From IMG/VR virus record IMGVR_UViG_3300045988_093281: a stretch of 40,142 nt of DNA; one strand, given 5' to 3'. Below are positions 4,379 to 31,565 of this stretch, piece by piece. Position numbers and translations under genes: made by a program. Source of the DNA: a virus. Numbering within the stretch: position 1 is the stretch's first letter; each line of letters begins with the position of its first letter. The notes beneath the pieces were generated by a model. That model was not told the origin of the DNA. It made no database searches and saw only the letters and a list, made by a program, of their open reading frames with translations.

Positions 4379-4426
4379 CAGTCGTCGGGGAGGACGCCAA
4401 AACATAGCCTGTTGAAAACCATGTCT

Positions 4427-4466
4427 TGGAGGAATCAGCATCTTTATTGTATACAATGTCCTCCGG
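4427..4466. other. Candidate attP core for the serine integrase
   Basis: Perfect 12-bp palindrome ATTGTATACAAT (4446-4457), flanked by GGAGGA and TCCTCC, about 90 nt upstream of the recombinase gene. Confidence 0.3.
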
Positions 4467-4552
4467 TTTGTCAACGAAAAAATGTAGAATCTGGATACAT
4501 CGTCCAAAATGATGTCCATGATCGCGTGATAATTTTAGGAGGCTTGTATGCT

Positions 4553-6199
4553 ATGACGCATGGCGCTTATATTTTAGCCCGGTACTCCACCGAGAACCAG
4601 TCCGAGGCCAGTATAGAGGTTCAGGTGGAACGTTGCCGGGAATGGTGTGTAAGGCAGAGCCTCCCGGTTCTGGACGTGTTTGCCGATCGGGCGATTTCCG
4701 GCATGAAGGAGACCCGCCCGGAGTACCAGCGCATGATGCAGGCGTTGTATGCCGGCGGTGCTGACACCGTTGTGATTTATGACCAGTCCCGTATGTTCCG
4801 GAATATGGTCTATTGGTTCCAGTTCCGCGAAGCGCTTCAGCGCATCGGCGTACACGTTGTATCGGTCACGCAGCCTACGGTAGGCGGTGACCTTAACGAC
4901 CCGGCTGTTTTTCTCAACGAGGGCGTTACCGCATTGTTTAACCAGATGTGGGTATTGCAAACACAGCAGAAGGTTAGGGAGGGTGTGCGGCAGCGGGCAA
5001 AATCCGGCAAGCATACAGGTGGTATCCCGGCACTCGGCTATAAGGTGGAAAATGAGCGTCTTGTGATCGACGAGGCGGAGGCTGAAACCGTCCGCCTGAT
5101 TTTCGGGCTGTACGCCGCCGGTCAAAGCTACATTGACATCATTGCAGAGCTGAACCGGCGCGGTCTGAAGACCAAACGTGGCAATGCGTTCGGGAAAAAT
5201 AGCATCCACGATTTGCTGAAAAATGAGAAGTATGTTGGCCGGTCGTTATTCGGTGGAAAACCGGTCAGCTATGACGGCACCCGGAACGCCCACGCCGCAC
5301 GCGGCGAACACCTGGAAATAGAGTGCCCGTCCATTGTCTCGAAAGAATTGTTTGATTCCGTCCAGGCGAGGCTTGCCGCAAATAAACATCAAAATACCGG
5401 AAAGAGGGTTACGGCAGTGGAACAACCGTTGAAGGGAAAGATTTTTTGTGGAACGTGCGGCGGTGCTATGACGATCCACTATAAATATCCCGCTCGTGGT
5501 GGCGACCGATATGAATATTACAAATGCGCCACAAAGCAGCGCGGAAAGGGTTGCTCCGGCATGAGCATCCGAAAAGACGAGCTGGAGGATACCGTAGCAA
5601 TCGCTGTGCTTTCCATGTTAGGCGCCCCAAAATCCCGTGACAAGCTGTTGAGCGTCCTTAGAGACCAGCGCGATAGCCTCCTGAAGATGTCTGCCCCGAA
5701 ATTAAAAGAGTTGCAGGCCGAGTATGACAACCTCGCATCCCAGATAGAAAAAGCGCTGGACGCCGTTATGGCTGGCCTGACCTCTCCGGCCCTAATCGAG
5801 CGTACAAACGCGCTGGAATCTAAAAAAGCCCAGGTTGCGGAAGAAATCGCTTTGTTAAAATCAAACGTCGAACACTCCAGCCTCCGTGACGAGCAGCTTG
5901 CCCCGCTCCTGGATAAACTGATAAAAAGCGCAAAGGACAACCCCTCCGCGATTTTGGCCACCGTCCTCCGCGTTGAGGTCTATCCCGATACAATAAAAAT
6001 ATGGACGATTTTTGACGACGGCCCCGCCCCAGGCGACGGCCCAATCACGAAGTCCAACGTCGCGTCCCTTGTAAAATCACCCGATACCGGCAAATGGTCT
6101 TTAGGTACTTTTGTTGGTACCGCATCTGGCGTACCAACAAATGTACCCAACATTTTTATTGTTGCGGCGTTTTCCGTTTTGCGCGAACGTAAAAAATAA
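4553..6199 (+). CDS. int: Large serine recombinase (integrase)
   Basis: ATG 4553 lies 10 nt after GGAGG. N-terminal resolvase motif YILARYSTENQ, recombinase domain, Cys cluster CGTCGG..YYKC, long C-terminal coiled coil. 548 aa. Confidence 0.95.
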   Translation: MTHGAYILARYSTENQSEASIEVQVERCREWCVRQSLPVLDVFADRAISGMKETRPEYQRMMQALYAGGADTVVIYDQSRMFRNMVYWFQFREALQRIGVHVVSVTQPTVGGDLNDPAVFLNEGVTALFNQMWVLQTQQKVREGVRQRAKSGKHTGGIPALGYKVENERLVIDEAEAETVRLIFGLYAAGQSYIDIIAELNRRGLKTKRGNAFGKNSIHDLLKNEKYVGRSLFGGKPVSYDGTRNAHAARGEHLEIECPSIVSKELFDSVQARLAANKHQNTGKRVTAVEQPLKGKIFCGTCGGAMTIHYKYPARGGDRYEYYKCATKQRGKGCSGMSIRKDELEDTVAIAVLSMLGAPKSRDKLLSVLRDQRDSLLKMSAPKLKELQAEYDNLASQIEKALDAVMAGLTSPALIERTNALESKKAQVAEEIALLKSNVEHSSLRDEQLAPLLDKLIKSAKDNPSAILATVLRVEVYPDTIKIWTIFDDGPAPGDGPITKSNVASLVKSPDTGKWSLGTFVGTASGVPTNVPNIFIVAAFSVLRERKK

Positions 6200-6230
6200 G
6201 GAGAGGGGTTAACCCCTCTCCTTATTTTTA
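6191..6230. terminator. Bidirectional terminator between int and the minus-strand cassette
   Basis: Perfect palindrome ATAAGGAGAGGGGTTAACCCCTCTCCTTAT, flanked by A- and T-runs. Confidence 0.8.
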
Positions 6231-6704
6231 TCCCGCCACAATCCCGTGGTAATACGCTGCCAGCTTGGCTTCCGGCCCCGGCCCGTCCTTGTCAAATAAA
6301 AACGCCTTTGCGAGGTCTGCGTAAAAATCCACCTTACTGCATCCGTGCTTTGTTGCCACGCTGCAATAGTCTGAGTACATCATATTCATGGCGGCATTCC
6401 ATTCCTCCGGCGTGATGTGTTCCATCACTACCCCTGCGGTTTTTGCCGCATCGGTGGTCTGTGCTACCGTCCAATGTCCGCCGGTGCTGCCATCGTCGTT
6501 TTTCATGTGGGTGTTCCACTTCTCCAGGACGTGCCCGTCGAGCTTCTCCGCGTTGCAGACACAGCCCTCCATGTCGTTGACGTGCTCCCAGCACTCAATC
6601 ATAGCATCAACAGCCGCCATGGATCGAGTGCCTACAGGCTGTGCCAGGTACTCGGCCAACTCATGTTCCAGTTTGGCTTTGTACTCCCTCAATTTGGTTT
6701 TCAT
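6228..6704 (-). CDS. 158-aa hypothetical protein
   Basis: ATG behind GGGGG. Motifs GGHWTVAQTT and NMMYSDY look familiar from Firmicutes phage hypotheticals (from memory only). Confidence 0.75.
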   Translation of the reverse strand: MKTKLREYKAKLEHELAEYLAQPVGTRSMAAVDAMIECWEHVNDMEGCVCNAEKLDGHVLEKWNTHMKNDDGSTGGHWTVAQTTDAAKTAGVVMEHITPEEWNAAMNMMYSDYCSVATKHGCSKVDFYADLAKAFLFDKDGPGPEAKLAAYYHGIVAG

Positions 6705-6716
6705 TGCGCTGCCCCC

Positions 6717-7157
6717 TTATGCCAACTTGACCGCACTAGCGCAGACGTGTGAGATGGTACCCGCCACGCCGCCGAGAGTGGCGCTGATTGTCGGCGTTCC
6801 GTTGCAGCACACGGGGATATAGATGGTGGTCTCTGCGTGGATCGTGTACACAGCGTCAGCCGCTACCGTCTCCTGCGCGTTGAGGCATGGCAGTGTTGCC
6901 GCGTCTTTTAACCCCTGTAGCACCACTACGCCGGCAGCGGACGGCGCAAACGTCACGTCATAGGCCACACGATACAGCCCGGAGGAGTTGATCTGAAAGC
7001 CTCCCGTAACCGTATCAATGGAGCATCCTGTATCCGTGTTGAGCACGCCCAGCACGGATACGGGGGTTCCGGTGGCAACAAACGCCTGTGATGCGTCGTT
7101 ATAAGCGTTCTGGGCGGATTTGTAGTGGCTGTTTTTCAGTCGGTTGTTACAACTCAT
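6717..7157 (-). CDS. 146-aa beta-rich protein resembling BclA C-terminal / C1q-TNF-like domains (tentative)
   Basis: ATG behind AAAGGAGAA. Pattern FQINSSGLYRVAYDVTF..VVVLQG..AVYTIHAETTIYIP..ISATLGG..HVCASAVKLA, with alternating beta-strand-like segments. Confidence 0.6.
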   Translation of the reverse strand: MSCNNRLKNSHYKSAQNAYNDASQAFVATGTPVSVLGVLNTDTGCSIDTVTGGFQINSSGLYRVAYDVTFAPSAAGVVVLQGLKDAATLPCLNAQETVAADAVYTIHAETTIYIPVCCNGTPTISATLGGVAGTISHVCASAVKLA

Positions 7158-7171
7158 AGTGTTCTCCTTTC

Positions 7172-7201
7172 AAAAATGCCCGGGGCAATTCCGCCCCGGG
7201 C
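7172..7201 (-). terminator. Rho-independent terminator inside the accessory cassette
   Basis: On the minus strand: GCCCGGGGC-ggaatt-GCCCCGGGC followed by ATTTTTG. Confidence 0.7.
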
Positions 7202-7230
7202 TTATCGCTGTTAGAGCGGTTGATTATTGG

Positions 7231-7872
7231 TTATGCGCACCCGCAGCCGCTATTGCAGCCGCAGAAGGGGGACGGCCCAGCTGTGTAAGTGTAACCGTTG
7301 GGATAACGGACAACGCCGTACATACGGTTGTCCGCTTCCAGCGCTGATACCTTGTCCCTCAGCTGCTGAATCTCATTTGCCTGCATCAGTGCCCTGGTCT
7401 GCTCACCCTCTGCGTGGATCGCCGTGGTAATATCGCAGGTCTGCCGGTCAATCTGTGCGGACAGGTTGGCGGTTGCCAGTCTGTTGTCACAGCAACACTG
7501 GGCAATCTGAGACTGGATATTGTTTCCGGTCTGCATGATTGTGGTGTTGGTGCCCGCCTGCGCAAGCGCAACCTCTTTCCCAAGCTGACCGATGTTGCTC
7601 TGCATTTCATAGCCGAGGTTGCAAATTCCGTTGCCCAGGTTGGACAGCCGGTCGTTGATCTGTCCAAACTGCTGCCCAAACAGAATCTCCTGCTGAGAGG
7701 CCGCAGTTGCATAGCGATCAAGCTCCCCGCTGTTCTGGCGGTTAAACCCGTTCCAGCCGCCGCCCATAATGACAAACAGGAACAGGATAATGATCCACCA
7801 TGCTCCGTTGCCTGCCATCCCGTCAGCGTCTTTTGTTACCGCTGCCAGATCGGAAAGACTGTAGTTTTCCAC
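7231..7872 (-). CDS. 213-aa membrane-anchored Q/N-rich protein with Cys clusters
   Basis: GTG 7872 lies 7 nt after AAGGAG. TM segment AWWIIILFLFVIMGGGW, then QCCCDN, RQTCDI, and a C-terminal FCGCNSGCGCA. Confidence 0.75.
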   Translation of the reverse strand: MENYSLSDLAAVTKDADGMAGNGAWWIIILFLFVIMGGGWNGFNRQNSGELDRYATAASQQEILFGQQFGQINDRLSNLGNGICNLGYEMQSNIGQLGKEVALAQAGTNTTIMQTGNNIQSQIAQCCCDNRLATANLSAQIDRQTCDITTAIHAEGEQTRALMQANEIQQLRDKVSALEADNRMYGVVRYPNGYTYTAGPSPFCGCNSGCGCA

Positions 7873-7922
7873 AAAATCACTCCTTGTCGTTAGATTTTAT
7901 ATAACACCGTAGCGCTCCGGGG

Positions 7923-8147
7923 TTATTTCAAAAATTCGGAAAATGCCGTTGCCTGCTGCTTGAGCTGCTGGAACTGCTCCTGCGTCATTTGTCCGGATGC
8001 AAGCATCTGTTCCACCTGCTGTTTCGCCCCTTCCGGAGTCATTCCGGCGGCGAACTTGCGAAACTCTGAAATCATGGCAAGCGGGTTATTTGCTTGCTGT
8101 TTTTGCGGCTGGCTTTGCCGCAGGAATTGGCTCATCGGGTTTGTCAT
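7923..8147 (-). CDS. 74-aa Gln-rich hypothetical protein
   Basis: ATG 8147 lies 9 nt after GGAGG. Translation MTNPMSQFLRQSQPQKQQANNPLAMISEFRKFAAGMTPEGAKQQVEQMLASGQMTQEQFQQLKQQATAFSEFLK. Overlaps the upstream gene by 62 nt. Confidence 0.6.
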   Translation of the reverse strand: MTNPMSQFLRQSQPQKQQANNPLAMISEFRKFAAGMTPEGAKQQVEQMLASGQMTQEQFQQLKQQATAFSEFLK

Positions 8148-8466
8148 TGATTGCTGCCTCCAATCTTGCAATTCGCTTTTCGAGCGTTTTTACGTCAATT
8201 TCCGGTGTCTCCTGATGCAGAGATATATCAAACGGCTGTGTGGTTCGGCACCCGGCTCCGTCAACCTGACAGAGCCACACAAGTGGTGCTGTATCATCCA
8301 TTGCAACAACCCCGCTATTTGGGGCCATTTGGTTGACCAACGCATTTGCTCCGCCCTGGCCTTTTACATGGACCAACTCATATTTCTGCATCTGCTGGGG
8401 CTGTTGGTTGTAGTAGTTGCCATAGCCCTGATACGGGGCATTGTAGGCTCCATACCCATATGCCAT
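8086..8466 (-). CDS. 126-aa protein with a Tyr/Gly/Asn/Gln low-complexity N-terminus
   Basis: ATG 8466 behind AGGAGGTGAGG. Translation MAYGYGAYNAPYQGYGNYYNQQPQQMQKYELVHVKGQGG..., with a coiled-coil-like LEKRIARLEAAIN. Confidence 0.7.
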   Translation of the reverse strand: MAYGYGAYNAPYQGYGNYYNQQPQQMQKYELVHVKGQGGANALVNQMAPNSGVVAMDDTAPLVWLCQVDGAGCRTTQPFDISLHQETPEIDVKTLEKRIARLEAAINDKPDEPIPAAKPAAKTASK

Positions 8467-8520
8467 CCGCCTCACCTCCTGGCTCTATCATACCGCGCCC
8501 CCTTTGCATCCACCATGCGG

Positions 8521-8590
8521 AAAAAATCCCATAAAAATCTCTTAAAAATATCATTTTGGGCTTGACAATTACACACGTGTGTAATATGAT
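8521..8590 (+). promoter_or_regulatory. Strong promoter with phased A-tracts and a palindromic operator
   Basis: TTGACA (8562-8567), 17-nt spacer, TATGAT (8585-8590). The spacer holds the perfect 16-bp palindrome TTACACACGTGTGTAA (8569-8584). A-tracts start near 8521, 8533 and 8544. Confidence 0.7.
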
Positions 8591-8639
8591 AAGGGCAGTT
8601 CAGGGAGACAACAACTAAACAATTCAATGAGGCTTTGAC

Positions 8640-8963
8640 ATGGGCGAAGCAAATAAAGTAGAAATGCGAGATAAGTTTTTGGATAACTGTAGGACAGATA
8701 TCCTTGCGTACTACCGCAAGCGCACCGACAACCTGCTTATTGCTATAAAAGAGGTTTGTGATCTTCCAGGCCACGATTCCCAGCCTGCAAGAGATATTCA
8801 GTCGCAACTCAATGCGCTATTTGACGAGAATCTTTTGTACCTGTCCGCTCTTAAAAAATATTACGGAAGCACATTTATAAAACCGAAAAGGACAGAAGAC
8901 ATTCTCAAAACCGTAATCCTCGCATACAAACAATACGAAAAAACTCTTTATGACCCAGCGTAG
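8640..8963 (+). CDS. 107-aa hypothetical protein (helical-looking, lower-GC gene)
   Basis: First ORF behind the 8562 promoter, with a weak GAGG SD. No family recognised. Confidence 0.7.
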   Translation: MGEANKVEMRDKFLDNCRTDILAYYRKRTDNLLIAIKEVCDLPGHDSQPARDIQSQLNALFDENLLYLSALKKYYGSTFIKPKRTEDILKTVILAYKQYEKTLYDPA

Positions 8964-9003
8964 CAAAAGCAGAAGCCCCGCAAAAGACGTGTAAGGAGGC
9001 AGA

Positions 9004-9204
9004 ATGATGGAACAAGCAGAACAGATTAAGGCGTTACGCGCCAGCACCGGATTGTCACAGAAAAAATTTGCAGAAAAAACAGGCGTTCCGGCGCGAACCA
9101 TTCTTTCATGGGAGACCGGAGACAGAAAGCCACCGGCCTATGTGATTCCGCTGCTCAGGCTGGCTGTGCTGGCCTTGGGCGGAGACGAAAAAAGTAATTA
9201 TTAG
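9004..9204 (+). CDS. 66-aa XRE/MqsA-type HTH regulator
   Basis: AAGGAGG upstream. LRASTGLSQKKFAEKTGVPARTILSWETGDRKPPAYVIPLLRL is a typical small HTH. Confidence 0.85.
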   Translation: MMEQAEQIKALRASTGLSQKKFAEKTGVPARTILSWETGDRKPPAYVIPLLRLAVLALGGDEKSNY

Positions 9205-9233
9205 GGAGATACCCAATCAAGGAGGACAACAAG

Positions 9234-9485
9234 ATGGAATATTACATCAACTACCACACCGGTGCCGGAAATGAATGGTTTGACGGCGACCTGGAAGACG
9301 CGATGAAAGCAGCAGAGAGCGGTGTATGCTACACACAGCAAGACGTAACAATCGAGACATACGACGGCAACGAGTTTGAGCGCGTCGCAAAACTGCCTTG
9401 GTGTGGATGCGCACCAGAAGATGAGGATGATGTGTTGATCGACTACGGATCGTTTGGATATTACGGTCAGTGGGTCGAATATTGA
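9234..9485 (+). CDS. 83-aa acidic hypothetical protein
   Basis: AAGGAGGA upstream. Rich in Asp/Glu (EDEDDVLIDYGSFGYYGQWVEY). Confidence 0.7.
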   Translation: MEYYINYHTGAGNEWFDGDLEDAMKAAESGVCYTQQDVTIETYDGNEFERVAKLPWCGCAPEDEDDVLIDYGSFGYYGQWVEY

Positions 9486-9519
9486 TCTTCGGCGTGATGA
9501 CGTATGGAGGCTTGTAAAA

Positions 9520-10110
9520 TTGAGACTTAGAAAGTGTGCTAACTGTGAGAAAATCTTCTCGGCAGCTGGCAAGGCTGTGCGGCTGTGCCCAGAGTGCGCA
9601 GATGCATCTAAACGGGACGTAATCCGCGAGAGGGTGTGTTGTCAATGCGGTGCCGTATTTGACGGAGGCCCAAGAGCATGGTATTGTCCATCCTGCCGTC
9701 TCGAAAGAATGAGACGGCAGGATGCTGAATACAAACGCAAAGGGCCAGCTCGTAAAATCGGAAGCATAGATGTATGCGCTGTGTGCGGAAAAGAATATAC
9801 CGTAAACAGCGGCCGTCAGCGTTATTGCCCCGCCTGTGCCGAAAACGCGATTAAAGACATCGACCGTGCATCGTCTCGTGAGTACTTTGCTCAGCATAAG
9901 GATGAGCACTACGAGTCACGGAAGGATGCTGTAACGCTTTGCGTAATTTGTGGTAAACCGGTGCCAAAAGGCACGCCGAGCGTTACGTGCTCTAAAGAGT
10001 GCGCCACCTTAGTCCGAAAACGGCACAACCAAAACGCAGATTATAAGCGCGGAAAATCCAACTCGCCATCCAAAATCATCAGATTAGACATCGCCACCAG
10101 AAAGGAGTAA
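9520..10110 (+). CDS. 196-aa protein with four CxxC..CxxC zinc-ribbon units
   Basis: TTG 9520 lies 9 nt after GGAGG. Units are CANC..CPEC, CCQC..CPSC, CAVC..CPAC, CVIC..CSKEC. Confidence 0.7.
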   Translation: MRLRKCANCEKIFSAAGKAVRLCPECADASKRDVIRERVCCQCGAVFDGGPRAWYCPSCRLERMRRQDAEYKRKGPARKIGSIDVCAVCGKEYTVNSGRQRYCPACAENAIKDIDRASSREYFAQHKDEHYESRKDAVTLCVICGKPVPKGTPSVTCSKECATLVRKRHNQNADYKRGKSNSPSKIIRLDIATRKE

Positions 10111-10113
10111 GTA

Positions 10114-10428
10114 ATGACAACACATACGATCTATCAATTTGGCCAGCTTTACCGCGCCCTGACCGACGCAACCCGTCCGCATGGGGCGAATGACGCAGAA
10201 TATCAGAACGCCCTGCATCGTCCACTGACGGAGATTGCAAAGGCTATCAAGCTGGCCCACCAGCTACATGTAATGACCCCGGAACTCAACAGCCTTTGCG
10301 CCGAATTCCTTGACGATGTGTCGCTGGAAGATCTCGAGGCGGAGCAATCCGGCACTGGCCTCACACTCCCACAGCAGGGCACGTTTTCTCTCGGGTATGC
10401 AAAGGGGAAAACTGTTAAGGATAAATAA
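10114..10428 (+). CDS. 104-aa hypothetical protein
   Basis: AAAGGAG upstream. Last gene before the bidirectional terminator. Confidence 0.7.
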   Translation: MTTHTIYQFGQLYRALTDATRPHGANDAEYQNALHRPLTEIAKAIKLAHQLHVMTPELNSLCAEFLDDVSLEDLEAEQSGTGLTLPQQGTFSLGYAKGKTVKDK

Positions 10429-10440
10429 CTCCACATGAGC

Positions 10441-10475
10441 CAAAAAATCCCCCACCTTTCGGTGGGGGATTTTTC
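10441..10475. terminator. Bidirectional terminator
   Basis: AAAAA-ATCCCCCACC-tttc-GGTGGGGGAT-TTTT. Confidence 0.8.
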
Positions 10476-10671
10476 ATACCCGTTTCATTTTATTTTTTAC
10501 CCGTCCGGAAATGTGCCGTATCCCACCAATGGAATACCCCATCGCGTCGCAGCAACTTTCGATCGTTATTCCCGCTGCCCGCAGGTCGAAAAATTCCCGC
10601 TCCAGACTGGTAAAATTGCAGGCTGCCCGGAAATGCTCCAACTCCGGAACTGTATAGTCCTTGATCTGCAT
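10474..10671 (-). CDS. 65-aa sigma-70 region-4-like / LuxR-like HTH protein
   Basis: ATG 10671 lies 8 nt after AGGAGG. Translation MQIKDYTVPELEHFRAACNFTSLEREFFDLRAAGITIESCCDAMGYSIGGIRHISGRVKNKMKRV. Confidence 0.65.
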   Translation of the reverse strand: MQIKDYTVPELEHFRAACNFTSLEREFFDLRAAGITIESCCDAMGYSIGGIRHISGRVKNKMKRV

Positions 10672-10686
10672 CCCCGTCACCTCCTG

Positions 10687-11718
10687 TTACCGATTCAGGA
10701 TAATCAGCACTCGCAATGCACTCAGCGGCATATCCAGCACCATATCATCGCCGCTGCCGCTTTTGCCCTTTAGCTTCCCGGCGTCCACCAGCTTGTCCAG
10801 CTCCTTGCGGTACCCATTCGGCACCTCGCCCAGGGTGTGATACCACGGCTCAATGGGCTGTAGCTTGCCGTCACTGCCCAGTCCGACAACCATGTTGGTC
10901 TGCATATCGCCGTCGGCACCCAGATAATAGGTGTCACCTCCGGCCTCTACCTGCCACGTATTGCTCAACATATAGCCCTCCTTGTCAAAGCTGTACCACT
11001 TGCCGTCGATCTTCGCCCAGCGGCCCTTATAGTAGGTATTGGAGGTATCCGCATACCACCAACCCTTGCTATCCTGATGCCAGCCTACCGTATATTTGCG
11101 GCTGCTGGTGACACTGCCGGAGTGCGCCATTACGTTGATGTCAAACCGTCCAGAGCATCCGGGGATTGTGTAGCTGCTGCTGTACTGCCAAAAGTCCCAG
11201 CTGTTGGTGCTGGCCTTGTCGGCATACTGGGCATACCACTGGGCGTATTTGCCGATCCGATCCTTGTCCACATAGTTGCGGAGATAATCTAAGTTATAGT
11301 ACACGCCAGGAGTATAGCCCCCTGCTTTGACAGCCTCGCAAAATGCCACTGTATGGGCGTTAAACGCTTCCCTGCCCAACGTCACGCCCTGTTTTTTGGC
11401 GTAATCGACGGTATCATACTCAAAATCGTAAAACACCGGAAGGGCAATCTTGTCCTTGTAGGGCTCCAGCATCTTGAGAACAAATGCCGCCTCATTCTTC
11501 GCCCCGGAAGCGTCCAGCGCATAGGAGAAATGATAGATGCCCACATGGATGCCCTGCGCAAGGGCACCTTCGATATTGCGCTTAAAATAGGTATCAGTGT
11601 GGCCGGTGCCGTAGCCGGTGCGGATGATTGCAAAGCTGATACCCGCCTTTTTGATCTTTGCCCAGTCCAGAGCGCCGTTGTGCTCGGAGACATCAATGCC
11701 AATGAGTTTAGCCATCAT
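10687..11718 (-). CDS. Endolysin: GH25 muramidase plus cell-wall-binding repeats
   Basis: GIDVSEHNGALDWAKIKKAGISFAIIRTGYG is a GH25 N-terminus. The C-terminus carries GW/WY repeats (GWWYADTSNTYYKGRWAKIDGKWYSFDKEGYM). Confidence 0.95.
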   Translation of the reverse strand: MMAKLIGIDVSEHNGALDWAKIKKAGISFAIIRTGYGTGHTDTYFKRNIEGALAQGIHVGIYHFSYALDASGAKNEAAFVLKMLEPYKDKIALPVFYDFEYDTVDYAKKQGVTLGREAFNAHTVAFCEAVKAGGYTPGVYYNLDYLRNYVDKDRIGKYAQWYAQYADKASTNSWDFWQYSSSYTIPGCSGRFDINVMAHSGSVTSSRKYTVGWHQDSKGWWYADTSNTYYKGRWAKIDGKWYSFDKEGYMLSNTWQVEAGGDTYYLGADGDMQTNMVVGLGSDGKLQPIEPWYHTLGEVPNGYRKELDKLVDAGKLKGKSGSGDDMVLDMPLSALRVLIILNR

Positions 11719-31319: not shown

Positions 31320-31565
31320 TCACTCGTCCGCCCATCCCCATAGATCAAACCAGGACGTCGGGCAGTACAGCTCATACGTTGTGAGATACGGCTCTTCGAC
31401 GTGGTTTGCCAGTATTGGCGTAGTCCTATCGGCCGCCAGCTCATCAAGCTCTGGTATTCTGTTCTCGGACTGTACGTACAGTCCAAACCCCTGTCGGGTG
31501 ATGTAGTGCCGCATGATCTCCATGCCATACTTTTTTTGCAGCTCTTTTGCTCTTGCTCTCGTCAT
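31320..31565 (-). CDS. 81-aa hypothetical protein
   Basis: Internal ATG 31565 behind GGAGGTAATTATA. Translation MTRARAKELQKKYGMEIMRHYITRQGFGLYVQ... Confidence 0.55.
   Translation of the reverse strand: MTRARAKELQKKYGMEIMRHYITRQGFGLYVQSENRIPELDELAADRTTPILANHVEEPYLTTYELYCPTSWFDLWGWADE

Follow-up and report, generated by a model that had tools for sequence, protein, structure and literature searches.

A candidate self-repressed anti-defence cassette at a hypervariable locus of temperate human-gut phages

What is the role of a five-gene operon that stands behind its own near-consensus promoter, with a palindrome filling the promoter spacer, beside the lysis genes of a temperate phage? The question is raised by positions 8,521 to 10,475 of the IMG/VR virus record IMGVR_UViG_3300045988_093281, a stretch of 40,142 nucleotides (nt) that was analysed as a whole and is called the window here. 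A preliminary description of this DNA had proposed two designs for the operon, namely an anti-defence operon of the acr-aca type (anti-CRISPR genes with an anti-CRISPR-associated regulator; CRISPR, clustered and regularly interspaced short palindromic repeats) repressed by its own helix-turn-helix (HTH) protein, or a toxin-first type II toxin-antitoxin (TA) or abortive-infection module. In the present study, the analysis of the operon and its relatives supported the acr-aca-like design but not the toxin-first one, given the many partners of the HTH gene and the lack of a neutralising domain. We give the reading of the operon as an acr-aca-like, self-repressed anti-defence cassette a probability of about 0.55. 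The best explanation is that the cassette represents one case of a modular accessory unit at a hypervariable locus beside the lysis genes of temperate human-gut Clostridia phages. Our confidence is high for the autoregulated modular architecture and moderate for the anti-defence role, which is argued from architecture, cargo properties and neighbours, not from homology. In its favour are the conservation of regulator and promoter, a varying cargo of small and mostly acidic proteins, and mimics of type I-C CRISPR repeats in the same locus of sister phages.

As previously described, a promoter of the form TTGACA-17-TATGAT preceded by three phased A-tracts was read at 8521-8590. The A-tracts (8521-8526, 8533-8537 and 8544-8548, plus strand), read directly, recur with a period of ~11 base pairs (bp) upstream of the -35 hexamer and form an AT-rich, UP-element-like block. 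The -35 hexamer TTGACA (8562-8567, plus strand) showed no change in 17 of the 18 unique related contexts, and the -10 hexamer TATGAT (8585-8590, plus strand) was TATAAT in some copies of the same phage. The promoter has 11 of 12 consensus matches and a 17-nt spacer; sites of this 11/12 grade numbered two in the whole 40-kb window versus a mean of 0.25 after shuffling. The claim that the entire spacer is a perfect 16-bp palindrome was correct in kind but not in length, as TTACACACGTGTGTAA was found in the spacer as part of a longer 18-bp perfect palindrome, ATTACACACGTGTGTAAT (8568-8585, plus strand). This putative operator, with the conserved core TACACACGTGTGTA, fills the spacer, abuts the -35 hexamer and shares the first base of the -10 hexamer. 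The 14-bp core occurred only once in the window. Any 18-bp palindrome would be expected by chance ~0.15 times per 40 kb; the significance of this one lies in its position and its conservation elsewhere, not in length alone. The core was kept in the 18 related contexts, and related HTH subfamilies had other palindromes at the same promoter position.

Behind the promoter, five plus-strand genes are closed by a bidirectional intrinsic terminator, and here the preliminary description was borne out by public gene calls on identical contigs, which agreed on all five. They are gp1 (8640-8963), the HTH gene gp2 (9004-9204), gp3 (9234-9485), gp4 (9520-10110) and gp5 (10114-10428). The terminator hairpin (10443-10474) pairs perfect 14-nt arms around a 4-nt loop and is flanked on either side by A/T runs; it is common to the operon and the convergent late/lysis operon, and in related phages it was kept at the right locus edge. 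The earlier observation of a lower GC content was also confirmed, with values of 0.34 for promoter and leader and 0.41 for gp1 versus ~0.50-0.54 for the other four genes and 0.535 for the window. The regulator gp2 is a 66-amino-acid (aa) XRE-type protein and a putative, Aca-like autorepressor. Its XRE assignment held (HTH_3, 36 bits versus a cut-off of 23, E 5.5e-9), but its proposed membership in MqsA was rejected, since MqsA-type models covered the HTH part only (MqsA profile positions 69-119 and TIGR03830 positions 67-115) and scored under their cut-offs. An assignment as the controller (C) protein of a restriction-modification (R-M) unit was likewise discarded; no R-M genes were found in the operon or its flanks, and matches to control-protein models were weak and confined to the HTH level.

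The promoter-operator TTGACANNTACACACGTGTGTA was then searched as DNA, and matches were obtained in 5 viral, 1 genome and 14 metagenome contigs, giving 18 unique contexts. The sole genome-collection match was a 3.4-kb contig binned to a Bacteroides metagenome-assembled genome, probably by mistake. The conserved block consisted of TTGACA, 2-3 nt, TACACACGTGTGTA, the -10 hexamer and the leader ARRGRCAGTTAAGGGAGAYAC, and the flanks diverged on both sides. All 18 contexts lay at the same locus, whose left edge was a conserved ~125-aa minus-strand gene and whose right edge was a gene for a 65-aa protein resembling sigma-70 region 4, beside the endolysin gene. The A-tract block was kept where the upstream neighbour was a 126-aa minus-strand gene. 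Phages of operator class A (gut Clostridia) kept the promoter-operator-leader block and a ~64-aa XRE HTH, while the plus-strand genes between the two edges differed. The gene orders behind the block included a 127-aa or a 134-aa protein followed by the HTH; a 52-aa protein, the HTH, a second operator promoter, a 63-aa protein, a gp5 homolog and another HTH; the HTH, an operator promoter and an 89-aa acidic protein; a 113-aa acidic protein, an HTH fusion and a gp1-like protein; and a 116-aa domain, a gp1-like protein, the HTH, an operator promoter and a gp3 homolog.

Individual genes of the operon recurred in other company. The pair of gp1 and HTH was found in three contexts only, namely the window and two of the fetched loci (L011 and L016; loci are cited by our L numbers). 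In L011, an 86% gp1 homolog in a different prophage stood behind the same promoter and operator and was followed by the same HTH and then by unrelated genes. In L016, a 57% homolog lay behind the same operator promoter, with a near-identical HTH upstream and an HTH-fusion protein downstream. In L034, a gp3 homolog immediately follows a class-A operator, and elsewhere gp3 homologs come after an ACACGC-type operator; homologs of gp5 were found in L024 and L036 (in the order C26-gp5-C36, where C numbers are our protein families) and after the HTH in L056. Within the class-A group, gp4 was present only in the phage of the window, one of ~20 class-A loci. The HTH was fused to an acidic C-terminal domain in L016, L021 and L023, and the same domain stood alone in L034. 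Locus content was replaced wholesale between near-identical phage backbones. The five genes are therefore not one conserved system, contrary to the preliminary description, but a mosaic of independently shuffling genes.

The cargo had common properties in spite of its variability. The first genes behind 86 such promoters fell into 23 families, with a median length of 84 aa and a median isoelectric point (pI) of 4.4, and 15 of the 23 families were acidic. Thirteen cargo families, comprising gp1, gp3, gp5 and ten from other loci (including the 123-aa C64), had no match in Pfam, PHROG or PADLOC. A sequence search of the PDB with gp1, gp3, gp5 and with three cargo families that are common in sister phages gave no Acr or other informative match. 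The guilt-by-association check of the gene set, which had been suggested earlier and was carried out here, favoured the acr-aca-like option.

The main argument for autorepression came from the co-variation of operator and regulator. A profile built from the HTH variants retrieved 80 viral loci, 78 of which had enough upstream sequence. Of the 78, 65 had a same-strand promoter with at least 10 of 12 consensus matches no more than 1.8 kb upstream. In 57 of these 65, the spacer held a palindrome with 6 or more of the 7 positions in each arm paired, and in 41 the palindrome was perfect. The proposed design, an independent transcription unit with a promoter operator for the co-encoded HTH, is thus a recurrent one. 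As a control, only 2 of 74 promoter-like sites on the opposite strand reached the same palindrome level. Because many HTH loci were near-duplicates, the independent units are the operator classes, about ten in number: TACACAC/GTGTGTA, CCGCCC-ATT-GGGCGG, CCGCAC-NNN-GTGCGG, GCACGC-ATT-GCGTGC, CCACCA-AATT-TGGTGG, TCACTC-ATT-GAGTGA and others. Each class paired with its own sequence of HTH helix 3. In sister phages, the -35 hexamer, the -10 hexamer and the leader were unchanged, and only the 17-nt spacer was swapped, along with its cognate short HTH. The swapped spacers TACACACGTGTGTA, CCGCACnnnGTGCGG or CCGCCCATTGGGCGG were observed in L050 (2636-2665 and 3087-3116), L052 (2200 and 2651) and L056 (2596), each with a matching short HTH. 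Since the operator classes co-vary with helix 3, these results argue for binding of the palindrome by the HTH and for repression of its own promoter. The closest PDB relatives of the HTH family profile were Atu1735, the HTH of HigA-2, 434 repressor, P2 C and Aca10; a single HTH sequence compared with the solved Aca structures gave no match at E <= 0.01, and a direct link to Aca10 was not obtained.

The 5' leader AAGGGCAGTTCAGGGAGACAAC (8591-8612, plus strand) contains, close to the predicted 5' end, a Shine-Dalgarno-like GGGAGA for which no start codon lies at a suitable distance. It was kept across the operator classes A, CCGCAC and CCGCCC, i.e., even where the operator was swapped, and in L050, L052, L056 and all class-A loci this position has the form A(R)AGACAGTTAAGGGAGAYAC. 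Compared with shuffled sequence, the leader had no stable RNA fold (z = -0.5); it may act as a 5' stabiliser of the messenger RNA or as a second regulatory site. In variants of the same phage (L001, L002 and L003, ~5923-6000, corresponding to 8562-8640 of the window), micro-diversity was observed at expression-setting positions: the -10 hexamer was TATGAT or TATAAT, and the ribosome-binding site of gp1 was AATGAGG or AAGGAGG.

On the favoured reading, the host sigma-70 RNA polymerase would fire the near-consensus promoter once the DNA becomes available. The 66-aa XRE HTH would then dimerise on the spacer palindrome and shut the promoter down, so that an early burst would give way to low steady expression, which is the logic of acr-aca operons. 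The bidirectional terminator would insulate the convergent late operon, and gp1, gp3, gp4 and gp5 would be interchangeable cargo, most likely inhibitors or modulators of host defence.

A possible target system was suggested by sister phages. The 12-nt 3' end of a type I-C CRISPR repeat, GTGGATTGAAAT, was detected in 17 of the 125 fetched loci. In most of these, it belonged to a stand-alone unit composed of its own TTGACA-17-TATNAT promoter, a single I-C-like repeat, ~30-60 nt and an intrinsic terminator. The repeat consists of GTC, a 4-6-bp stem whose sequence varied between copies while the pairing was kept, and then GTGGATTGAAAT. The units lie in the same locus as the operon of the window, where they follow the last protein-coding gene and precede the shared terminator. 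They were located at 2223-2752 in L023, 3350-3640 in L021, 12800-12990 (minus strand) in L020, 5610-5745 in L037 and 1310-1530 in L016. One to three units were present per locus: L023 carries three in tandem, of which the second and third have related post-repeat segments (TACTTTRTTTAGATTA...), and the unit of L037 directly follows a gp4 homolog. In the literature, a solitary repeat close to a promoter is the signature of RNA anti-CRISPRs, and these cluster with acr genes; the type I-C RNA anti-CRISPR RacrIC1 has been validated, and the repeat end GTGGATTGAAAT is that of type I-C systems. The units of the sister phages are accordingly worded here as candidate RNA anti-CRISPRs or CRISPR RNA (crRNA)-like regulatory RNAs. 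A separate observation was made in L119, a viral contig on which an HTH relative is encoded as well. Positions 5380-5520 hold a genuine type I-C array fragment with at least three copies of GTCGCTCCCTTCACGGGAGCGTGGATTGAAAT and 33-35-nt spacers; this could be either a mini-array carried by the phage or an adjacent array of the host.

Several results weigh against the anti-defence reading. The window itself contained no CRISPR-repeat mimic, and the proteins of the operon had no likeness to known Acr, anti-defence, defence or toxin families by sequence or fold. The HTH is encoded by the second of five genes, not by the last as in classical acr-aca operons; gp1 is neutral, and gp4 is basic and occurs in varied contexts, one of them upstream of terminase. 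The HTH profile matched Aca10 (7XI5) with E 3.4e-4 and 23.5 bits, more weakly than Atu1735 and the HigA-2 HTH. Six loci (L023, L025, L026, L029, L030 and L033) had a class-A operator and no short class-A HTH; their sole HTH was a 181-aa fusion protein, and in L050 the fusion sits behind a different operator class. As no known Acr is among the cargo and the HTH is generically XRE-like, membership in the acr-aca class cannot be claimed.

A strong autoregulated promoter is compatible with prophage-expressed defence or conversion genes as well, and the operon might hold morons, i.e., genes that benefit the host through superinfection exclusion, defence or lysogenic conversion, with a controller-type HTH maintaining a steady level in the lysogen and the variable cargo reflecting diversifying defence. 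The position between the lysis genes and the recombinase-side genes is a classical one for morons, and the operon has its own sigma-70 promoter and terminator. An insertion sequence (IS) element and an AAA_21 ATPase gene occur at the edge of the locus in L002, a variant of the same phage, a ToxIN system adjoins the cassette in L011, and the HTH has weak similarity to R-M controller proteins and capH. We nevertheless consider this explanation unlikely, as none of the cargo proteins tested matched a PADLOC defence model, the cargo is tiny, acidic and devoid of enzymatic domains in Pfam, PHROG or NCBIfam, and the promoter-driven CRISPR-repeat mimics in the same locus suggest counter-defence. A phage regulatory module, in which the HTH, gp1 and gp4 would be transcription or nucleic-acid-binding factors that steer development (late genes or the lysis-lysogeny choice) and not immunity, appears slightly less probable again. 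It would account for gp4, a basic protein of high conservation (176 clusters) whose build is like that of tandem zinc-finger arrays and whose gene often comes directly after an HTH gene and, in one phage, lies just upstream of the terminase genes. It would also agree with the gp1-like proteins that adjoin an HTH in 11 loci and with the sigma-70 region-4-like gene that abuts the locus. However, gp4 was present in one of ~20 class-A loci and gp1 in three contexts, so neither is essential for development in this phage group, and the locus content is replaced wholesale between near-identical backbones.

The remaining explanation takes gp1 and the HTH as a toxin-first type II TA or abortive-infection pair of the MqsRA/HigBA type, with the other genes as passengers. 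The adjacency of the two genes in all three contexts in which they pair, the resemblance of the HTH to the HTH parts of the MqsA and HigA-2 antitoxins and the palindrome in the promoter, as in TA promoters, would fit such a pair. We regard it as improbable because the HTH follows at least six unrelated upstream families (e.g., 127 aa, 134 aa, 52 aa and 63+123 aa), cargo after which no HTH follows can also be driven by the operator promoter, and gp1 relatives lie on either side of HTH genes, including downstream of HTH fusions. Moreover, the 66-aa HTH has neither the zinc-binding neutralising domain of MqsA nor the disordered one of HigA-2, and no room for one; gp1, a predicted three-helix protein of neutral pI, has no toxin-family match and no HEPN motif; and the two genes are separated by 40 nt with no overlap.

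Returning to the reading as an anti-defence cassette, a more specific version of it can be offered tentatively, at somewhat less than even odds. The ~64-aa HTH may represent an undescribed family of Aca-like regulators with about ten operator specificities that marks a hypervariable anti-defence island. In that case, gp1, gp3, gp4 and gp5 would be new anti-defence proteins, several of them aimed at type I-C CRISPR-Cas alongside the repeat mimics.

With respect to the individual cargo proteins, gp1 (107 aa) is neutral and helical and belongs to a rare family (C18) related to C9 (hhalign probability 93%, E 2.5e-7) and weakly to C98. Only three homologs, with 94%, 86% and 57% identity, were found in a word-indexed search of 5.8 billion proteins and an exhaustive HMMER search of 1.8 billion representatives. 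Its relatives often, though not always, adjoin an HTH gene. The AlphaFold2 model comprised three helices with moderate confidence (predicted local distance difference test, pLDDT, 74), and a Foldseek comparison with the PDB returned generic helical hairpins only, none better than E 0.8. No match was found in Pfam, NCBIfam or PADLOC. A HEPN toxin was ruled out, since gp1 does not contain the Rx4-6H motif and its single histidine is not conserved. The strongly acidic gp3 (83 aa, pI 4.1) and the mildly acidic, helical gp5 (104 aa) are recurrent cargo, and neither had a family or PDB match in Pfam, PHROG, NCBIfam, PADLOC or a PDB sequence search. For gp3, the word-indexed search yielded one close homolog, which left the alignment too thin for structure prediction.

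The product of gp4, which has a TTG start, is a basic protein of 196 aa with four tandem C4 zinc-ribbon-plus-helix modules. Its family comprised 176 homolog clusters, and all 16 cysteines were invariant or nearly so across 61 homologs. The AlphaFold2 model (pLDDT 92.9) consisted of four beta-hairpin-plus-helix zinc modules. Foldseek searches of the PDB and BFVD retrieved only generic zinc-finger arrays, the zinc part of an HNH protein and uncharacterised phage proteins, and sequence scans gave only generic zinc-ribbon matches. The protein probably binds nucleic acid. In other phages, gp4 is typically the last gene of a similar plus-strand operon, directly after an HTH and beside the lysis genes; one homolog was also found upstream of terminase. 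Two further elements were noted inside the gp4 gene: a promoter-like site, TTGACG-17-TATTGT (9659-9687), and, following it, an inverted repeat with 22-nt arms (9681-9702 and 9711-9732) that are 86% complementary. The DNA of the operon had no match among 50,697 deposited phage genomes, and Rfam scans of the window and four related loci returned only chance terminator-like matches.

The surroundings of the operon are those of a temperate siphophage-like genome. A serine recombinase gene (4412-6199) and accessory genes on the minus strand (6228-8475) lie on the left. On the right, a minus-strand gene (10474-10680) encodes a 65-68-aa protein weakly similar to sigma-70 region 4; it is the last gene of the late operon, after the gene for a GH25 endolysin (10687-11718), next to which are the structural genes, and in all related phages it is the conserved right border of the variable locus. 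By TerL, a Clostridium scindens phage (51% identity) was the nearest relative in culture. The phage of the window was common in human-gut metagenomes. A 38-bp perfect palindrome with A/T runs (6192-6229), between the recombinase and DUF7841 genes, is probably a bidirectional terminator, and a second 18-bp perfect palindrome, GGACTGTACGTACAGTCC (31467-31484), in the early region may be another operator. In L002 (7904-10912), an IS element with a 470-aa DDE_Tnp_1 transposase is inserted between the operon terminator and the 65-aa gene, together with a gene for a 325-aa AAA_21/AAA_15 ATPase; the locus edge therefore accepts more accessory genes, possibly defence genes among them. In L011 (6795-7496 and 7770-7830), a ToxN toxin gene, preceded by short ToxI-like tandem repeats, lies just upstream of the gp1-HTH cassette, and between the two is a 3'-end fragment of a transfer RNA gene, probably the mark of the end of the prophage. 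Also present in this prophage is a reverse transcriptase with DUF6273 genes that looks like a diversity-generating retroelement.

Hardly any anti-defence genes are known from gut Clostridia phages, since the proteins are small, evolve fast and have no homologs that can be detected. The combined signature of regulator and operator can be searched as DNA, and it has already given 86 promoter sites and 23 cargo families; it thus offers a practical means to find such genes through association, in the way that aca genes have served for anti-CRISPRs in Proteobacteria. If the HTH does represent a new Aca-like family, the promoter-operator pattern would serve to search phages of gut Firmicutes for dozens of new inhibitor families, and the co-location with type I-C repeat mimics suggests a concrete target system. 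In addition, the operator-only swaps in a constant promoter provide a clean natural example of diversifying repressor-operator specificity.

Compared with known systems, the HTH shares its fold, a WExG motif, a palindromic operator in its own promoter and, in three contexts, the gene order with type II antitoxins of the HigA-2/MqsA kind, but, unlike them, it has neither a neutralising domain nor a conserved toxin partner, and toxin homology is lacking. The candidate repeat units of sister phages, which are absent from the window, resemble Racr RNA anti-CRISPRs and viral crRNA-like RNAs (Cracr) in their promoter, single type I-C-like repeat and terminator, sometimes with three in tandem. The comparison with Aca10, a 65-aa HTH repressor (PDB 7XI5) with the operator AATACGCTCATTGAGCGTATT, revealed weak similarity for the family profile (23.5 bits) and none for single sequences; the host belongs to another phylum, and the TACACAC/GTGTGTA operator of the window has no central spacer. 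Nevertheless, the two agree in size (63-66 aa), in an HTH like the C-terminal part of MqsA and in an operator format of a 7-9-nt half-site, a 1-3-nt A/T-rich centre and a second half-site, and the Aca10 operator is strikingly like those of some relatives, e.g., ATATCACTCATTGAGTGATAT in L080. In contrast to acr-aca operons, the cargo includes no known Acr, and by comparison with the solved Aca structures the HTH could not be assigned to any of Aca1-14, the Aca10 match being at the generic XRE level. The HTH here is the second of five genes, two cassettes often stand in tandem, and the operator fills the spacer exactly and is swapped alone within a constant promoter and leader in sister phages. 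With acr-aca operons, whose promoters have been reported to be near-consensus with an inverted repeat inside the core promoter (PMC9410906), the cassette shares just such a sigma-70 promoter. Further common points are a small HTH co-encoded with small, unrelated and fast-swapping genes, a regulator and promoter conserved across mobile elements while the cargo varies, HTH-acidic domain fusions that mirror bifunctional Acr-Aca proteins such as AcrIIA1, and RNA anti-CRISPR-like repeat units in the same locus of relatives.

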